A stretch of DNA of 5,284 nt from Escherichia coli (GCF_036507355.1 NZ_AP027882.1); one strand, 5' to 3'. Positions 1 to 5,284 are shown, counted from the stretch's first letter. Translations and numbers: made by a program. The notes: generated by a model from the sequence alone, not told the origin.

Positions 1-10
1 AGCGGAGCCT

Positions 11-337
11 ATGGAAAAGCGAACGAAAGAGATCAAAATCCGGCTCACCGAAACCGAGCATCAGCTACTGCTTGAGCGCTGCGACCGGACTCATCTTGCT
101 GAGTGGCTGCGTCACCTTGGTCTGGGCGAGCACACCTCACGCAAGCGCCGTGTGCCCAGTGTGGCGCCCGAACTGCTGCGACAGGTCAGCGGGATTGGTA
201 ACAACCTGAACCAGATCGCCCGCCGTCTGAACCAGAGTGATTCCCTTACGCCCTCTGAACGTGTCTCGCTGCTTGCCGTGCTGAACAGTCTCGACCGGCA
301 GCTTGGCGATTTACTGGAGCAGAACCGTGATCGTTAA
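11..337 (+). CDS. mbeC: Relaxosome accessory protein of the MobC/MbeC family
   Basis: 108-aa ORF with GGAG at 4-7 ahead of the ATG. Translation (..LTETEHQLLLERCDR.., ..VSGIGNNLNQIARRLN..) reads like MobC/MbeC proteins of ColE1-type plasmids. Stop at 335-337 overlaps the start of the relaxase gene, the usual mbeC-mbeA arrangement. Assignment is from recalled family resemblance. Confidence 0.8.
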   Translation: MEKRTKEIKIRLTETEHQLLLERCDRTHLAEWLRHLGLGEHTSRKRRVPSVAPELLRQVSGIGNNLNQIARRLNQSDSLTPSERVSLLAVLNSLDRQLGDLLEQNRDR

Positions 338-1862
338 AATTCACTCGCGCGGTGCGGGCTCAGGCAGTGGTCCGGTGGATTATCTGCTGGGAAAAGACCG
401 GCAACGCGAACAGGCCAGTGTGCTGCGCGGCAACCCTGAATATGTGCGCGAGCTTATCGACGGCTGCGACTTTTCCCGCGCCTACACTTCCGGTGTGCTG
501 TCATTCCAGGAGCCGGACATTGCGGATGCCGAGAAATCGCGCCTGATGGATGAATGGGAGCACACGCTGCTGACCGGCCTCGACCGTGACCAGTACGCCT
601 GTCTGTGGGTGGAGCACCGCGACAAGGGACGGCTTGAGCTGAATTTTGTCATCCCGAACATCGAATTGCAGAGCGGCAAACGCCTTCAGCCCTACTTTGA
701 CCGCGCCGACCGCCCCCGCGTCAACGCCTGGCAGACCCTGACTAATGACCGGCTGGGGCTGCGTGACCCGAACGACCCGACCTGTCGCCGACCGCTGACA
801 CAGGCCAGCGATCTGCCCCGCGACAAACAGCTGGCGGCAGAGAAAATCACCACCGGCCTGATGAACCTGATGCAGCAGGGTGTGATCCGCAGCCGGCAGG
901 ACGTGGTGGCGCAGCTGGAAAGCTACGGCCTGACCGTGGCGCGGGAAACGAAAAGCAGCATCAGCATTGCCGATCCGGACGGTGGCAGAAATATCCGGCT
1001 GAAAGGAATGATTTATGAGCGAGATTTTAAATTTGGCGAAGGGCTTCGAGGAGAAATCGAAGCAGCAGGCGCAGGATATCGAGCAGAGCGTGAAGCGCGA
1101 GTTCGGGAGGCTGGAGATGTCTATCGGCGCGGAACTGCAATCAAGCTCGCAGAGCATCAGCAACGCTATCCGCGAGCAGAACGGCAGGCTGACGGGCATG
1201 ATCAGAGCCTCCGTCTCAACGGCGATGGCGTGGATATTCACCAGCTTCGCCCTGCTGATCGGCATCCTGGGCGGGATAATCTGGTTTCAGGGCACGATCA
1301 TCACCTCACGCCTGAGCGAAATGGACAGCTACAGCCAGCAGCTGGCGAGCCTGAAAGCGAAAAGTGGCGCGGGTGTGACGATTTACAGCGACGACTCCCG
1401 CCGGAACACCTACCTGGTGGTGCTGCCGAAGCAGGCACACGGTGTGGAAACCTACACGTCACAGGCCGGAAACACTGTAGTGAAATACACGGCGAAATAA
1501 CCCCATCAGAACGCCCTGAAACGCCTCAGCGCGTTTTTAACACCGAGGACGACCAAAACCATGACCGAGATGGAAAAACAGCTTCTGAGCGCCTTAGAGA
1601 GCTTACAGACAAGCTACGAGCAACAGCAGCAGGCATGGCAGGCCAGCTACAGCAGTTTGCAGCACATGTTCGAGACTACCTCGCAGGCGCTGGAACGCAG
1701 CGACAGGGTCTGTCAGCACTTGAGCAGTCAGGTGAACAGCTTGCGCGATCAGGTCGAGAACTTGAGCTGCAACGTCAGCCGGTTAATGCGCTCGTGAAGC
1801 AGCACGAACACCAGATTCAGATGGAAAAAAAGCGGACACGTTATCACGGCCTTTCAATTTAA
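327..1862 (+). CDS. mbeA: Mobilization relaxase, ColE1 MbeA-like (MOB HEN family)
   Basis: Long GC-rich ORF (open from TTG 303). N-terminus from GTG 327 reads MIVKIHSRGAGSGSGPVDYLLG, closely resembling ColE1 MbeA including the catalytic-Tyr context. Conserved stretch WVEHRDKGRLELNFVIPN (nt about 606-659) carries the His/Glu/Asn motif. GGAG at 316-319 sits 7 nt before GTG 327, so I prefer 327 over 303; the start is uncertain. Confidence 0.88.
   Translation: MIVKIHSRGAGSGSGPVDYLLGKDRQREQASVLRGNPEYVRELIDGCDFSRAYTSGVLSFQEPDIADAEKSRLMDEWEHTLLTGLDRDQYACLWVEHRDKGRLELNFVIPNIELQSGKRLQPYFDRADRPRVNAWQTLTNDRLGLRDPNDPTCRRPLTQASDLPRDKQLAAEKITTGLMNLMQQGVIRSRQDVVAQLESYGLTVARETKSSISIADPDGGRNIRLKGMIYERDFKFGEGLRGEIEAAGAGYRAEREARVREAGDVYRRGTAIKLAEHQQRYPRAERQADGHDQSLRLNGDGVDIHQLRPADRHPGRDNLVSGHDHHLTPERNGQLQPAAGEPESEKWRGCDDLQRRLPPEHLPGGAAEAGTRCGNLHVTGRKHCSEIHGEITPSERPETPQRVFNTEDDQNHDRDGKTASERLRELTDKLRATAAGMAGQLQQFAAHVRDYLAGAGTQRQGLSALEQSGEQLARSGRELELQRQPVNALVKQHEHQIQMEKKRTRYHGLSI
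1015..1500 (+). CDS. mbeB: Mobilization protein MbeB-like, nested within mbeA in an alternate frame
   Basis: 161-aa ORF in a different frame from mbeA, AAGGA 7 nt upstream of the ATG, central hydrophobic segment (AMAWIFTSFALLIGILGGIIWF). Position and size match the mbeB gene nested in ColE1 mbeA. Confidence 0.75.
   Translation: MSEILNLAKGFEEKSKQQAQDIEQSVKREFGRLEMSIGAELQSSSQSISNAIREQNGRLTGMIRASVSTAMAWIFTSFALLIGILGGIIWFQGTIITSRLSEMDSYSQQLASLKAKSGAGVTIYSDDSRRNTYLVVLPKQAHGVETYTSQAGNTVVKYTAK
1561..1797 (+). CDS. mbeD: MbeD-like mobilization/entry-exclusion protein, nested in the 3' part of mbeA
   Basis: 78-aa ORF in the same alternate frame as mbeB, GAGGA upstream, Gln/Ser-rich probable coiled coil (MTEMEKQLLSALESLQ..). 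Matches the position and character of ColE1 mbeD. Confidence 0.7.
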   Translation: MTEMEKQLLSALESLQTSYEQQQQAWQASYSSLQHMFETTSQALERSDRVCQHLSSQVNSLRDQVENLSCNVSRLMRS

Positions 1863-1897
1863 GAGTCATGTAAGTTGTTTTTAAGGTTTTTTTTAAC

Positions 1898-1925
1898 TTG
1901 ATATAAGGTCTATGTAATGTATATT
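1898..1925 (+). promoter_or_regulatory. Candidate sigma70 promoter (TTGATA, 16-bp spacer, TATATT) in the AT-rich islet, upstream of the 78-aa ORF
   Basis: TTGATA at 1898-1903 and TATATT at 1920-1925 with a 16-bp spacer, in a strongly AT-rich intergenic stretch. Sequence-pattern call only. Confidence 0.3.
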
Positions 1926-1958
1926 TATCTCGATTTTTAATTGAGGTAAAAAGTAAAA

Positions 1959-2195
1959 ATGGCTAAGGGTGCTCAAGCAATTTCTAAAGAAATAAACGAG
2001 TTAATGAGAAAAAACGGGAATGAGTGCATTACCTTGAAGTGGGAGCAGTTCTACGAGATATGTGAAAGAGAAAGGCTTGCAGAAGTAGTCATGGAAAGAG
2101 TGTCAGAAAGCCTTAAAAAAAATGACCTTCATATTATCTACGGTAACAACGTGATTATCGTAAGAGATTTCTGTTGGAAACCCGTTTCTCTTTAG
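1959..2195 (+). CDS. Hypothetical small protein (78 aa), unknown function
   Basis: ATG at 1959 preceded by GAGGT (1944-1948). AT-rich codon usage distinct from the flanking GC-rich genes. No family recognised from the translation. Only ORF in the islet. Confidence 0.5.
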   Translation: MAKGAQAISKEINELMRKNGNECITLKWEQFYEICERERLAEVVMERVSESLKKNDLHIIYGNNVIIVRDFCWKPVSL

Positions 2196-2201
2196 TGATT
2201 A

Positions 2202-2229
2202 GTGACAACGTGTTGTTTTAAGGTATAAG
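2202..2229 (+). promoter_or_regulatory. Candidate rep promoter (GTGACA, 16-bp spacer, TATAAG)
   Basis: GTGACA at 2202-2207 and TATAAG at 2224-2229. Would give a leader of roughly 140 nt before the rep start, consistent with leader-based control of ColE2-type rep genes. Pattern-based only. Confidence 0.3.
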
Positions 2230-2373
2230 TTTAACGGCAGAAAAAACAAAGCCCCGGCAATCATGAGCTATCTTGGCGGATGAGCATGACTACCAGGGCC
2301 AGGTACAAAACCTTGAAAGGATATTAGCACATGAACTGTGCCAGACAACAGCCCGCCATAAGCGCAGGGCGCT

Positions 2374-3270
2374 TTGAGTAACGCCGCACTCGAACTATTC
2401 AACGAACGCTTGCCGCACAAGCCGTACTTTTCGGACGATTTGCACTTTGGTGTACGCATTGCCGGCAAGGAACGCGCCATTCTGGCGAAATACATCCAGT
2501 TCAATCAGCCTCATGCCATGTTCTGGCTGGGATTCGATGTTGATCGCGCCGGTGCCGCTATTGACTGGAGTGACCGCAATGCTCCCGCGCCCACACTGAC
2601 CATCACCAACCCCGAAAACGGACACGCGCATCTGCTGTACGCGCTAAAAACCTCGATACGCACAGCGCCGGACGGAAAAATGAAGCCGCTGCGCTACGCT
2701 GCCGCCGTGGAGAACGCGCTACGTAAAAAATTAGAGGCTGACGCGGGGTATTCAGGGTTAATCTGCAAAAATCCGAACCACAGGCACTGGAAAATTGCCG
2801 TGTGGCAGCCGGAACTCTACACACTGGACTGGCTGGCCGATTTCCTTGACCTGAACGCTGCGAACGATAAAGAAATCGTTGCCGACTACGGATTAGGCCG
2901 TAACTGCACCTTGTTCGACAAAACCCGAAAATGGGCTTATCGTGCTATTCGTCAGGGCTGGCCTGAGTATGGACAATGGATGCTAGCTTGTGTTGAAAGA
3001 GCTACAGCTTACAACATGCAGTTTTCAGCACCATTAGATGAAAAGGAGGTCATAAGTATAGCGAAGAGTATATCTAAATGGACATATTCTAAATTCACAC
3101 AGCAATCTTTCGATGAATATGTTAAGAAAACACACTCAGCTGAATGTCAGAGTATAAGAGGGCGCAAGAGCTCTGGCGGAGGGCGGCCAAAAATAAGATC
3201 TGAGGAGTGGGTCTCTCTAGGTATTAGTCGCGCTACGTGGTATAGGAAGCACTATAAAAATGAAAATTAA
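2374..3270 (+). CDS. rep: ColE2-type plasmid replication initiator (Rep, primase-like replicase with PriCT-like and C-terminal HTH regions)
   Basis: 298-aa ORF starting at TTG 2374, with an in-frame stop at 2359-2361 just upstream. Translation (..ERLPHKPYFSDD..FDVDRAGAAIDWSDRNAPAP..NGHAHLLYAL..YSGLICKNPNHRHW..GLGRNCTLFDKTRKWAYRAIRQGWP..) follows the conserved blocks of ColE2-family Rep as I recall them. C-terminus has a basic tract and an HTH-like WVSLGISRATWYRK. Base composition switches from GC-rich to AT-rich near 2950. Confidence 0.85.
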   Translation: MSNAALELFNERLPHKPYFSDDLHFGVRIAGKERAILAKYIQFNQPHAMFWLGFDVDRAGAAIDWSDRNAPAPTLTITNPENGHAHLLYALKTSIRTAPDGKMKPLRYAAAVENALRKKLEADAGYSGLICKNPNHRHWKIAVWQPELYTLDWLADFLDLNAANDKEIVADYGLGRNCTLFDKTRKWAYRAIRQGWPEYGQWMLACVERATAYNMQFSAPLDEKEVISIAKSISKWTYSKFTQQSFDEYVKKTHSAECQSIRGRKSSGGGRPKIRSEEWVSLGISRATWYRKHYKNEN

Positions 3271-3916
3271 GATGTATGTCTTGTCTTTGTTTTTTTTGTT
3301 TATACCAATAATTTTTTATTTTTCTGGTATTGATGATGTCTGGAACGTTTTTACCAAAGCTAATGGTTTTTGTGATGGCGTCAGTAATCGTATTGTCTGT
3401 ATAACAGGTAATATGGGCAACCAGCTATCTCTATCCGTGTCAAGGTTATGCGTTTGTATTTTTTTGGTCTTTTTGTGTGGCTATACTTACTGGTGGTATA
3501 AGAGACAGCTTTCATTTTTGGATAGGGGGATTACCTCTGCCGAAGTGGTTGTTGTTGGATGCGAAAAAGAGTCAACTGAGTATCTGTCATTTTTGTCAAC
3601 TTACATAATGCCCCTGGTTTTTACAGACTTAACAAAACCTTCAAATGTTTTCAATTTCATTTTTATTCTAGTTATTGTCGGATTTCTTCATATAAAAACA
3701 AGAAGGATTCATAGCAACCCAACGCTTTCATTGTTTGGTGTTTCTGCTTACAAAATTGACTATATAATCAGGGTTGATGGTCAGGATTCTGATATCACAA
3801 AAGGATTGATTGTCCTGTCGAAGGATGAGATATCTGTGAAAAGTGTAATTCGAATCATAAAAAAAGAAGACTACATTACATTCGCAAAATACATAAGGAA
3901 CGATTCAAATGGCTGA
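3260..3916 (+). CDS. Multi-pass inner-membrane protein, unknown function (about 4 predicted TM helices plus a roughly 70-aa soluble C-terminal domain)
   Basis: 218-aa AT-rich ORF. Hydrophobic segments at about aa 5-23, 57-80, 108-121 and 129-145, followed by a charged tail. ATG 3260 overlaps the rep stop (3268-3270); AGGAAG at 3244-3249. An alternative in-frame ATG is at 3272. Confidence 0.7.
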   Translation: MKIKMYVLSLFFLFIPIIFYFSGIDDVWNVFTKANGFCDGVSNRIVCITGNMGNQLSLSVSRLCVCIFLVFLCGYTYWWYKRQLSFLDRGITSAEVVVVGCEKESTEYLSFLSTYIMPLVFTDLTKPSNVFNFIFILVIVGFLHIKTRRIHSNPTLSLFGVSAYKIDYIIRVDGQDSDITKGLIVLSKDEISVKSVIRIIKKEDYITFAKYIRNDSNG

Positions 3917-5054
3917 AGAAAAACTGGATTTAAGCGAGCTCCATCATGACGCGCAGAAGGCCTCTGAGCTCTCATCCTATTACTCCCACTTCGATACAAA
4001 GGTAGAAGATTTTGACCTTCATGTATATTTTAACTTTAGGCATAAGATAAAGGGCGGTGATGGAAAGTACCGTTACGAATATCGGGTTGCAAAAATAGAT
4101 GATACTACTGTTCTGAAAGAATCAATCAAAGATAACGTGATAACAAAAACCCTTAATGATCTAAGTAGCGGTAGAGTTGCAGTATCTGATATAAAGCAGC
4201 TTAGTGATAGGGCTAGCACTATATCATTTTTAGAAGATGCAAAGTCATACAAAGATGAACAGATGTCTTTTTTGACAGGTATTATTTTTGATAAGGGATT
4301 TGGAGGTGATGGGGATATTCCTGTCGTCAATTTTGAGAAGTTTGATAAAATATCAAAGGTTGACTCAATTGTTTTTGTCTTAAGGAAAGGTGATAAATGT
4401 ATAACAATATACAAAAAACAGTATCCTATACAGAACCTGACCAAACAGAAAAATCATTACTTCTCATATAGCAAAGATACGTTATCAAAAATAGATGCTG
4501 ACATGATATCAATTGATGGAAAAGCCTCTATTGTTTTTGTTAAAGGTACTGCATATATCTATGATCAGGATGTTTTTGAGAAATTTTTCGGATACAAGAA
4601 GTGGATAAAAAAAGTTGCGGGCGAATTTGTTTCTGAAATGAAGCAAAAATTTTCATCGATAGTAGACTTTGGAAAAGTTACCGACAGGCTTGAAAAAGAA
4701 AGTGCTGATGCAGATGCCTTTTCAAGGAAACTGGCAAGAATATATAACAATAAAGATCTAAGAGCTTCCTTTAATACTGTTACACCAGAAAAAATCAGTG
4801 ATTTTTTAGTTGAAAATGAGTATTTCGCTAGATTGCTAAAGTACAAATCAGCGGAAGAACCTTTAGAAGTATCAACCCATGATCAGCAGGAAGCATTTAT
4901 ATTAATAGTTTCTGAGGGCGTTCTTCGCTCGCTTATTACTGGTTTTGATTATTTAAGCCCTGCCGCGAAAAGAAAAATTGCGACAGGCCAAACCGCGCAA
5001 AAACCTTCTTCTGTAGTAACTAGGATACCCTCCAGCGCATCTGACGCCGCCTAA
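3909..5054 (+). CDS. Hypothetical 381-aa soluble protein, unknown function; candidate effector or sensor partner of the upstream membrane protein
   Basis: Long AT-rich ORF with AAGGAA 8 nt upstream. ATG 3909 overlaps the upstream stop (3914-3916) in an ATGGCTGA junction. No Walker, HxH, nuclease or other motif recognisable by eye. Ends just upstream of a strong hairpin plus T-run. Confidence 0.8.
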   Translation: MAEEKLDLSELHHDAQKASELSSYYSHFDTKVEDFDLHVYFNFRHKIKGGDGKYRYEYRVAKIDDTTVLKESIKDNVITKTLNDLSSGRVAVSDIKQLSDRASTISFLEDAKSYKDEQMSFLTGIIFDKGFGGDGDIPVVNFEKFDKISKVDSIVFVLRKGDKCITIYKKQYPIQNLTKQKNHYFSYSKDTLSKIDADMISIDGKASIVFVKGTAYIYDQDVFEKFFGYKKWIKKVAGEFVSEMKQKFSSIVDFGKVTDRLEKESADADAFSRKLARIYNNKDLRASFNTVTPEKISDFLVENEYFARLLKYKSAEEPLEVSTHDQQEAFILIVSEGVLRSLITGFDYLSPAAKRKIATGQTAQKPSSVVTRIPSSASDAA

Positions 5055-5077
5055 CGAACGAGCTTGAGACAAAACAA

Positions 5078-5125
5078 CCTATATCAGATAACAGCCCTCT
5101 CTAAGAGAGGGCTGTTTTTTTTGCA
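5078..5125 (+). other. Candidate ColE2-type replication origin element
   Basis: TATCAGATAACAGC at about 5081-5094 matches the core of the ColE2 ori as I remember it (recall, not search), and is followed immediately by the hairpin and T-run. It lies about 1.8 kb downstream of rep, not directly after it. Confidence 0.4.
5091..5122 (+). terminator. Rho-independent terminator-like hairpin with T-run closing the rep-cargo operon
   Basis: Perfect inverted repeat ACAGCCCTCTC (5091-5101) / GAGAGGGCTGT (5105-5115) around a TAA loop, followed by eight T (5115-5122). Read directly from the sequence. Confidence 0.65.
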
Positions 5126-5139
5126 GCCAGCACAGAATC

Positions 5140-5245
5140 TGACATACTACACCATACCATAAGCCAGTACACACAGCGTCCCCTCTGCGAGGTGCCGTCT
5201 GTGACTGGTTCAGGGGGCTCGCCGCCCCCCGAAACCCCCGGCATC
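5140..5245 (-). other. ColE1 bom-like oriT with putative nic site (minus strand)
   Basis: Minus strand reads ..GAACCAGTCAC..(31 nt)..GTGTGTACTGGCTTATGGTATG.., resembling the pBR322/ColE1 bom region ..GACCCAGTCAC..GTGTATACTGGCTTAACTATG.. recalled from memory. Putative nic within CTGG/CTTA, between plus-strand 5163 and 5164. GC-rich inverted repeat GGGGGC / GCCCCC at 5213-5229 nearby. Confidence 0.5.
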
Positions 5246-5284
5246 CACTGCGAAAAATTCTCACGGTGGTGCGAATTTTTTCTT

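Follow-up and report, generated by a model that had tools for sequence, protein, structure and literature searches.

What kind of plasmid joins transfer genes that resemble those of ColE1 to a replication initiator that resembles that of ColE2, and what occupies the AT-rich DNA set into such a backbone? The question is raised by a stretch of 5,284 nucleotides (nt) from Escherichia coli (GCF_036507355.1, NZ_AP027882.1), read on one strand from position 1 to position 5,284 and here called the window over that whole length. It encodes a ColE1-like mobilization module with an origin of transfer (oriT), a ColE2-type Rep primase and two AT-rich blocks, the larger of which contains kwaA and kwaB, genes assigned by homology to the Kiwa anti-phage system. 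The window is very probably a complete circular, mobilizable plasmid of 5,284 bp that belongs to the pUB6060/pHW66/pMUT2/Col(Ye4449) family and comprises four modules, namely replication, transfer, Kiwa and a small variable slot.

The window is a complete circular plasmid

A whole-window megablast search returned eight PLSDB records that match the window at 99.0-100% identity. Six of these eight are exactly 5,284 bp long and circular, with start points permuted relative to the window, and because the full-length matches are circularly permuted, position 5284 is contiguous with position 1 within independent assemblies. This join, which a preliminary description of the window had put forward as a check, shows that the window is a whole plasmid, neither a fragment nor an integrated element. 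No chromosomal match to the cargo cassette was found among 5,426 complete E. coli genomes.

The near-identical plasmids come from Salmonella enterica (turkey, a food supplement and serovar Agona), E. coli (human stool) and Dickeya fangzhongdai (pear). MOB-suite assigns replicon Col(Ye4449) and relaxase MOBP to the database copies and classes them as mobilizable, and the RefSeq copies have their cargo labelled KwaA and KwaB-like. One copy is published: pSE18-SA00377-4, a Col(Ye4449) plasmid of 5,284 bp with mobC, mbeD, mbeB and mbeA and no resistance genes (PMC10686068). Plasmid pJS5 of the pear pathogen D. fangzhongdai (Pectobacteriaceae) differs from the window at 45 of 5,284 positions and E. 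coli pLAO2 at 7; this closeness suggests, at the sequence level, that the plasmid has moved recently between bacterial families and between very different habitats. Two database copies are shorter (NZ_OX442406, 5,087 bp; NZ_CP139809, 4,800 bp and marked linear). Feature offsets place their missing stretches at the record ends, corresponding to window positions 545-741 in NZ_OX442406 and to the orf78 region in NZ_CP139809, and both look like products of assembly trimming, not biological deletions.

The features of the window are as follows.

11-337, plus strand: mobC/mbeC, relaxosome accessory gene; Pfam NikA-like and MobC matches; 45% identical to ColE1 MbeC; named MobC in RefSeq copies
327-1862, plus strand: mbeA, MOBP5/HEN relaxase of 511 amino acids; GTG start overlapping the mobC stop
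1015-1500, plus strand: mbeB, nested in mbeA in another frame; Pfam MbeB_N, E=3.6e-17; annotated as MbeB in the copies
1561-1797, plus strand: mbeD, nested in mbeA in another frame; Pfam MbeD_MobD, E=3e-22; NCBIfam plas_excl_MbeD, 109 bits against a cut-off of 60
1808-2229, no strand: variable slot 1, AT-rich block 1, GC 0.34; homology to backbones of about 90% identity breaks at 1807 and returns at 2230
1959-2195, plus strand: orf78, a conserved small protein; 48 clusters of homologues, the most distant about 60% identical
2238-2345, minus strand: candidate antisense RNA against the rep leader; hairpin loop CCGCCAAGAU followed by a U-run; 5' end approximate
2331-2381, plus strand: 16-codon leader open reading frame (ORF); AAAGGA 8 nt upstream of the ATG; stop overlapping the TTG start of rep (TTTGAGTAA)
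2374-3270, plus strand: rep, ColE2-family initiator/primase of 298 amino acids; TTG start
2974-5060, no strand: exchangeable cassette (slot 2), AT-rich block 2, GC 0.36; 3' third of rep, kwaA and kwaB
3260-3916, plus strand: kwaA, Kiwa membrane component by homology; 11-nt overlap with the rep stop
3909-5054, plus strand: kwaB, Kiwa DUF4868 effector of 381 amino acids by homology; 8-nt overlap with kwaA
5065-5095, plus strand: ColE2-type origin, TGAGAC-N11-TATCAGATAACAGC; motif and spacing as directly after rep in pColE2-P9
5090-5124, plus strand: intrinsic terminator with a 12-13-bp stem and T8; inverted repeat with 13-nt arms, 100% complementary (5090-5116), overlapping the end of the origin
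5157-5250, minus strand: oriT; nick-region core TAAGCCAGTACACAC at 5160-5174, minus-strand reading GTGTGTACTGGCTTA, then GTGACTGGTTCAGGG and a GC-rich repeat

GC content along the window is as follows.

1-1862: GC 0.584
1863-2230: GC 0.334 (AT-rich block 1)
2231-2949: GC 0.534
2950-4950: GC 0.357 (AT-rich block 2)
5061-5284: GC 0.518

A ColE2-type replicon with a displaced origin

Rep matches Pfam Replicase (PF03090, E=2.2e-45) and PriCT_1 (E=6.4e-11), is 54% identical to pColE2-P9 Rep over 298 amino acids, and matches the solved DNA-binding domain of ColE2-P9 Rep (PDB 3VW4, E=2.8e-24). Replicons of the ColE2 type have an origin of about 32 bp, use a ppApGpA primer made by Rep and depend on DNA polymerase I; the title of Avison et al. 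2001 reportedly calls pUB6060 ‘DNA polymerase-I-independent’. The ColE2-P9 origin was taken from the pColE2-P9 record (NZ_KY348421). This plasmid and the window have in common the Rep family and the origin motif TGAGAC-N11-TATCAGATAACAGC, but the origin of pColE2-P9 abuts the rep stop, as is usual immediately downstream of rep in the ColE2 type, whereas that of the window lies 1.8 kb downstream, after kwaB. Specifically, the window origin starts 10 bases past the kwaB stop and 1,795 bp past the rep stop, with kwaA and kwaB in between. Its core, CCTATATCAGATAACAGCC, does not vary among six plasmids that differ in cargo, and the ColE2-family Rep primase is predicted to act on this 31-bp site at 5065-5095. 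The two plasmids differ further in relaxase and cargo, which are MOBQ and colicin E2 with its immunity and lysis functions in pColE2-P9, and MOBP5 and Kiwa in the window. ColE9-J is classed as MOBQ4 (PMC6856555).

Downstream of rep, kwaA and kwaB, the plus strand has just one strong terminator, that at 5090-5124. Its left hairpin arm is the 3' end of the origin (…AACAGCC), so that one sequence serves both as part of the origin and as the likely rep-kwaAB terminator. The hairpin and T-run are found at the same place in pMUT2 and pColE2-P9.

Components of the ColE1 replicon were absent. RNAI was not found in a permissive Rfam scan of both strands, even at E<=1, which returned only three sub-threshold matches; blastn and tblastn comparisons of the window with ColE1 (NC_001371) matched the mob region alone and left the origin and rop unmatched; and the Pfam Rop domain was absent from all eight main ORFs. 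A 52-amino-acid ‘replication initiation protein’ of ColE1, considered as a link to the ColE2-type Rep, was dropped, as its similarity to the window Rep is nil.

A ColE1-like mobilization module

Over residues 1-503, MbeA and its ColE1 counterpart share 43% identity (E=1.8e-106); Tyr19 and His97/Glu104/Asn106 of the window protein are conserved and align with ColE1 MbeA, in which we take them to be the catalytic tyrosine and the HEN metal motif, respectively. The identities of MobC to ColE1 MbeC and of MbeD to its ColE1 counterpart are 45% and 39%, and MbeB and MbeD are recognized by Pfam (MbeB_N and MbeD_MobD). ColE1 and the window have the same mbeC-mbeA order, nested mbeB and mbeD, and an oriT core upstream of mbeC. 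They differ in that the shared proteins are only 39-45% identical and ColE1 uses an RNAII/RNAI/rop replicon. The TAAGCCAGTAyACAC nick-region core and two further blocks, GTGACTGGnTCAGGG and CCCGGCATCC, are common to the window oriT and the ColE1 oriT (NC_001371, from 1462 onward). As in ColE1, oriT precedes the mob operon and has the same orientation with respect to mobC; six relatives show almost no variation across this region.

The mbeA ORF is intact, with 511 codons that align to ColE1 MbeA over residues 1-503. In the RefSeq copies, the Prokaryotic Genome Annotation Pipeline calls the relaxase gene a C-terminally truncated pseudogene, and PLSDB tables omit it. The pseudogene label is probably an error of annotation to which the nesting of mbeB and mbeD gave rise. 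In the proposed transfer scheme, a MOBP5/HEN relaxosome of MbeA-D would nick the minus strand of oriT at about 5160-5174, and transfer would need a co-resident conjugative helper, as expected from the plasmid family. IncF and IncI1 helpers have been reported for MOBP5 plasmids (PMC6856555).

The preliminary description was correct in reading the mob genes and oriT as ColE1-like, in seeing no ColE1 RNAI/RNAII region or rom gene (as borne out by Rfam, the ColE1 comparison and Pfam), and in proposing that replication uses a Rep primase, which the Pfam, pColE2-P9 and PDB matches place in the ColE2 type. Its term ‘hybrid’, for ColE1-type mobilization and oriT combined with ColE2-type Rep, is correct on every point tested.

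An exchangeable cassette begins inside rep and ends at the origin

The two AT-rich blocks that had been described at about 1863-2230 and 2950-4950 were recovered at those coordinates, with GC contents of 0.334 and 0.357 against 0.518-0.584 in the backbone. It had further been claimed that the edges of the blocks do not fall cleanly at the edges of genes. This does not hold for block 1, which starts right after the mbeA stop (1862) and ends at the rep control region (2230); for block 2 it holds at the start, inside rep, and fails at the end, which falls at the origin.

The window was compared with five plasmids that have backbones of about 90% identity and other cargo. BLAST homology to these backbones extends over 5061-5284 plus 1-1807 and from 2230 to about 3083-3141, with none between, and the right-hand homology restarts at 5061-5076. 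When DNA identity to the five backbones is scored over 60-nt windows, it goes from 81-96% to 46-71% at about nt 600 of rep, near window position 2974, and the drop in GC content inside rep coincides with this drop in identity. Identity to pMUT2 is flat (66-81%) across the same point. The GC content of the rep tail is 0.33-0.47 in every cargo-bearing relative and 0.52 in the insert-free pColE2-P9, and the C terminus of Rep is intact and homologous at the protein level in every variant. Because identity and GC content break inside rep while the Rep C terminus and the origin are conserved, the cassette is defined as the cargo together with the final third of rep, with its right edge at the origin.

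Among the six closest plasmids, the overlap between the rep stop and the first gene of the cargo ranges from 4 to 20 nt. PADLOC identified defence-related cargo in slot 2 of relatives as well: PD-T4-5, an Old/AriA/GajA-like ATPase, a PbeA-like helicase, DUF4231 together with a ThsB-like Toll/interleukin-1 receptor (TIR) protein, AbiU/AIPR, and RexA plus RexB on Yersinia ruckeri pYR5. The window contains no transposase or integrase ORF. A repeat scan found no flanking repeats at the AT-rich blocks, only short two-copy families, often due to chance, and the terminator hairpin; a search allowing three mismatches found no cer/XerCD site in the window.

The cargo genes encode a divergent Kiwa system

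By homology, the cargo is a divergent subtype of the Kiwa anti-phage system. KwaA was identified by PADLOC (E=1.9e-121), by the NCBIfam KwaA equivalog model (174 bits, cut-off 100) and by similarity to a solved structure (PDB 9MRG, E=1.8e-13); it has no Pfam match. KwaA proteins have four transmembrane helices, and Kyte-Doolittle hydropathy of the window protein shows strong hydrophobic segments at residues 6-24, 56-74 and 127-145, and a weaker one at about 108-122 that aligns with the solved KwaA chain. KwaB was identified by PADLOC over its full length (E=1.2e-220) and by Pfam KwaB/DUF4868 (PF16162, 63 bits, cut-off 26). The genes are adjacent on the same strand and overlap by 8 nt, which is the two-gene Kiwa layout. 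The solved Kiwa (PDB 9MRG and 9MRX) and the window thus share a two-gene kwaA-kwaB operon, a small multi-pass membrane KwaA and a DUF4868 KwaB, but are distant subtypes, and KwaB has 315 amino acids in the solved system and 381 in the window.

In characterized Kiwa, membrane KwaA tetramers sense infection-induced disturbance, and KwaB binds DNA that enters the cell and prevents replication as well as late transcription (PMC11785009). Among tested Kiwa systems, five of five had anti-phage activity and four of five lowered plasmid conjugation more than twofold; Kiwa is often carried by plasmids, as are 105 to 110 of the roughly 1,260 dereplicated loci (PMC11785009). By homology to the solved system, KwaA of the window would act as a membrane sensor and KwaB as a DNA-binding effector, encoded between rep and the origin as the main cargo of the plasmid. 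The overlap between kwaA and the end of rep, together with a single strong terminator located past kwaB, makes it probable that the cargo shares the rep transcript or is expressed from signals within the AT-rich tail of rep.

The rep control region resembles that of IncB/IncI plasmids

In ColE2-type replicons an antisense RNA, RNAI, represses the translation of Rep by way of the 5' leader. Upstream of rep in the window, the candidate antisense RNA folds with an energy of -41.1 kcal/mol (z=-4.4), and its hairpin has eight pairs with compensatory changes among 11 replicons, a set that overlaps the one used for the leader ORF. The 51-nt leader ORF and its start/stop overlap with rep are kept in 11 of 11 replicons examined, including pMUT2 and Yersinia and Edwardsiella plasmids. 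An mRNA loop, UUGGCGG, is complementary to an invariant CCGCCA within the leader ORF. In IncB/IncI plasmids, rep is controlled by translational coupling to a leader and by a pseudoknot, and by analogy these features suggest translational coupling with a pseudoknot in the window. Synthesis of Rep would then probably be throttled by the counter-transcribed RNA acting on the leader hairpin and by coupling of the 16-codon leader ORF to rep. pColE2-P9 and the window are alike in that the DNA upstream of rep encodes a counter-transcript with a hairpin and a U-run behind it. They differ in that the leader loop of pColE2-P9 is inverted (CCGCCAAGA on the mRNA strand) and in that no overlapping leader ORF was seen on reading the region upstream of its rep.

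A promoter scan of the window gave seven promoter-like matches, compared with 6.9 expected from shuffled sequence, and a promoter for rep, the antisense RNA or kwaAB is therefore not claimed.

The small slot carries orf78

Slot 1 is a second, smaller exchangeable slot. In relatives it holds RelE/ParE plus NadS, RelB/RelE or CcdAB, and slot 1 with orf78 was found in the window and in one Serratia plasmid. Members of the orf78 family are 78-80 amino acids long and are mostly encoded on plasmid-sized contigs. The protein has no match in Pfam, NCBIfam, PADLOC or PHROGs, and a Pfam domain was found in 0 of the 48 homologue clusters. An AlphaFold2 model (predicted local distance difference test score, pLDDT, 78) has an alpha-beta-alpha-alpha-beta-beta order. 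Foldseek searches of this model against the PDB returned nothing significant (best E=0.086), and many of the top matches were winged-helix DNA-binding domains; the modelled fold is possibly winged-helix-like. We note that a chromosomal homologue, 63% identical, adjoins a transposase fragment and a BrxR-like WYL regulator, a context that is only suggestive. The best promoter-like site of the window lies at 1898-1925, ahead of orf78, in a scan whose matches are overall at the shuffled expectation.

The same architecture is found in known plasmids

The rep control region is shared by 360 PLSDB records, 223 of which are typed as mobilizable. Among the closest described counterparts is pMUT2 of E. 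coli Nissle 1917 (NZ_CP023342, 5,514 bp), which is colinear with the window (mobC-mbeA-mbeB, slot 1, rep, kwaA, kwaB, origin and oriT) and has the same 11-nt rep/kwaA overlap. Amino-acid identities between the two are 79% for Rep, 76% for MobC, 59% for MbeA, 57% for KwaA and 54% for KwaB, and backbone DNA identity is about 70-76% throughout. Slot 1 holds RelB/RelE in pMUT2 and orf78 in the window. The combination of ColE2-like replication with ColE1-like mobilization has been described for pMUT2 (PMC11056357), and its Kiwa system was recognized by DefenseFinder and PADLOC in 2026 (PMC13226779).

An earlier precedent is pHW66 of Rahnella, for which Rozhon et al. (2010) described a ‘hybrid structure’ with a ColE2-like repA and the mobA-D genes and oriT of the ColE1 superfamily (PMC2831885). 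In pHW66, a low-GC (36%) insert of >2 kb parts the putative oriV from repA, the genes of the insert seem cistronic with repA, and an XerCD site is absent (PMC2831885). The same paper notes that pUB6060 has close homologues of the pHW66 mob genes, a distinct low-GC insert adjoining repA and no XerCD site, and includes pYe4449-1 in its RepA alignment only (PMC2831885). Judged from this published description, the hybrid layout, low-GC insert, displaced origin and missing Xer site of pHW66 are all present in the window; the inserts differ, with a putative ATPase and a hypothetical protein in pHW66 and Kiwa in the window. The insert and its cistronic layout have thus been known since 2010, and the defence identity of the slot, its intragenic boundary and the leader-ORF control were not found in the searchable literature.

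Discussion

‘Hybrid’ is a fair description of the window, yet of an old and widespread family, neither recent nor unusual. The preliminary description had overlooked the Kiwa identity of the cargo, the origin, the start of the cassette within rep, the defence genes of relatives and the type of rep control. The organization proved to be common, with the function of the cargo already annotated, an outcome that the preliminary description had itself named as a refutation; the plasmid, the family architecture and the cargo annotation are all public, and the finding is correct but ordinary. A truly new backbone, produced by recent recombination between a ColE1 and a ColE2 plasmid, is very improbable. 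The prototypes do hold the modules apart, with MbeA-D and RNAII/RNAI/rop in ColE1 and Rep and MOBQ in pColE2-P9, but the modules of the window are far from both (43% for MbeA and 54% for Rep), and the combination has been kept in a deep lineage that includes pMUT2, Yersinia and Enterobacter plasmids, pHW66 and, through its close mob homologues, pUB6060, as well as in the many PLSDB records that share the rep control region (360, of which 223 are mobilizable). It is scarcely credible that the window represents a chromosomal element, integrated or excised, or a product of faulty assembly. This reading could appeal to the copies of 5,087 bp and 4,800 bp, the latter marked linear, but these records lose sequence at their own ends, as is typical of assembly trimming, whereas six independent assemblies from three genera close at exactly 5,284 bp from different starts; moreover, chromosomal matches number zero in the 5,426 complete E. 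coli genomes, and the replicon and mobilization module are both complete.

The AT-rich blocks could instead have been brought by a transposon, insertion sequence (IS) element, integron cassette or site-specific recombinase, as their sharp compositional boundaries and the variation of cargo between backbones of about 90% identity might suggest. We consider this unlikely, given that neither a transposase or integrase ORF, nor flanking inverted or direct repeats, nor a cer/Xer-like site was found in the window, and that the left junction lies inside the rep frame with the Rep C terminus intact, which fits replacement by recombination and does not fit simple insertion. The AT-rich blocks are the two exchangeable slots. 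The simplest reading, and the most likely one for the larger cassette because conserved backbone bounds it on both sides, is that related plasmids exchange cassettes by homologous recombination. A more specific proposal, which we hold tentatively and at somewhat less than even confidence, is that the rep-to-origin interval is a dedicated exchangeable site for anti-phage genes, with a boundary at about codon 200 of rep and control of the CopA/IncB-IncI type, making the plasmid a three-way mosaic. Under this proposal, each cassette brings its own AT-rich Rep C-terminal tail, which may supply expression signals for the cargo, and the cargo of the closest relatives would be cistronic with rep, with transcription ending at the terminator fused to the origin. 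As for function, kwaA and kwaB might serve mainly in competition between plasmids or in plasmid retention (exclusion or addiction) and not in phage defence of the host. The conjugation-lowering effect of four of five tested Kiwa systems (more than twofold; PMC11785009) favours this, as does the presence of kwaAB on a high-copy mobilizable plasmid without a toxin-antitoxin module, though relatives have one in slot 1. We regard it as doubtful, since all five tested systems are anti-phage (PMC11785009) and the slot of relatives is occupied by classical genes for abortive infection and defence, RexAB, AbiU and PD-T4-5 among them.

Several results weigh against parts of the account of a mobilizable, Kiwa-bearing plasmid with IncB/IncI-like control. 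MbeA scores 474 bits on NCBIfam relax_MbeA_E1, just under the cut-off of 500. KwaB scores 92 bits on its NCBIfam model, under the equivalog cut-off of 200, which is why RefSeq uses the name ‘KwaB-like’, and matches the solved KwaB (9MRX) at E=1.3e-7. In the rep control region, the Rfam CopA-like match has E=0.056 and is below the gathering score, and the match to PK-repBA, the IncB repBA pseudoknot region, has E=2.8e-5 and 35.8 bits, with a gathering score of 45. More distant relatives (pYR5) encode their slot-2 cargo on the other strand, so the cistronic layout is not universal, and promoter-like matches in the window were no commoner than in shuffled sequence. We infer Kiwa activity, mobilization and co-transcription with rep from homology and gene layout.

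For the Col(Ye4449) family, these results mean that a so-called cryptic plasmid, for which only the mob genes are recorded in Salmonella surveillance, carries a phage-defence system as identified by homology, which bears on phage therapy and biocontrol. Essentially the same plasmid spans Salmonella, E. coli and the pear pathogen Dickeya. The parts that may repay further work are the cassette boundary inside rep, the defence content of the slot across the family and a control region that is not of the ColE2-P9 type. The slot between rep and the origin gathers diverse defence genes and could become a small-plasmid model of defence-gene exchange.

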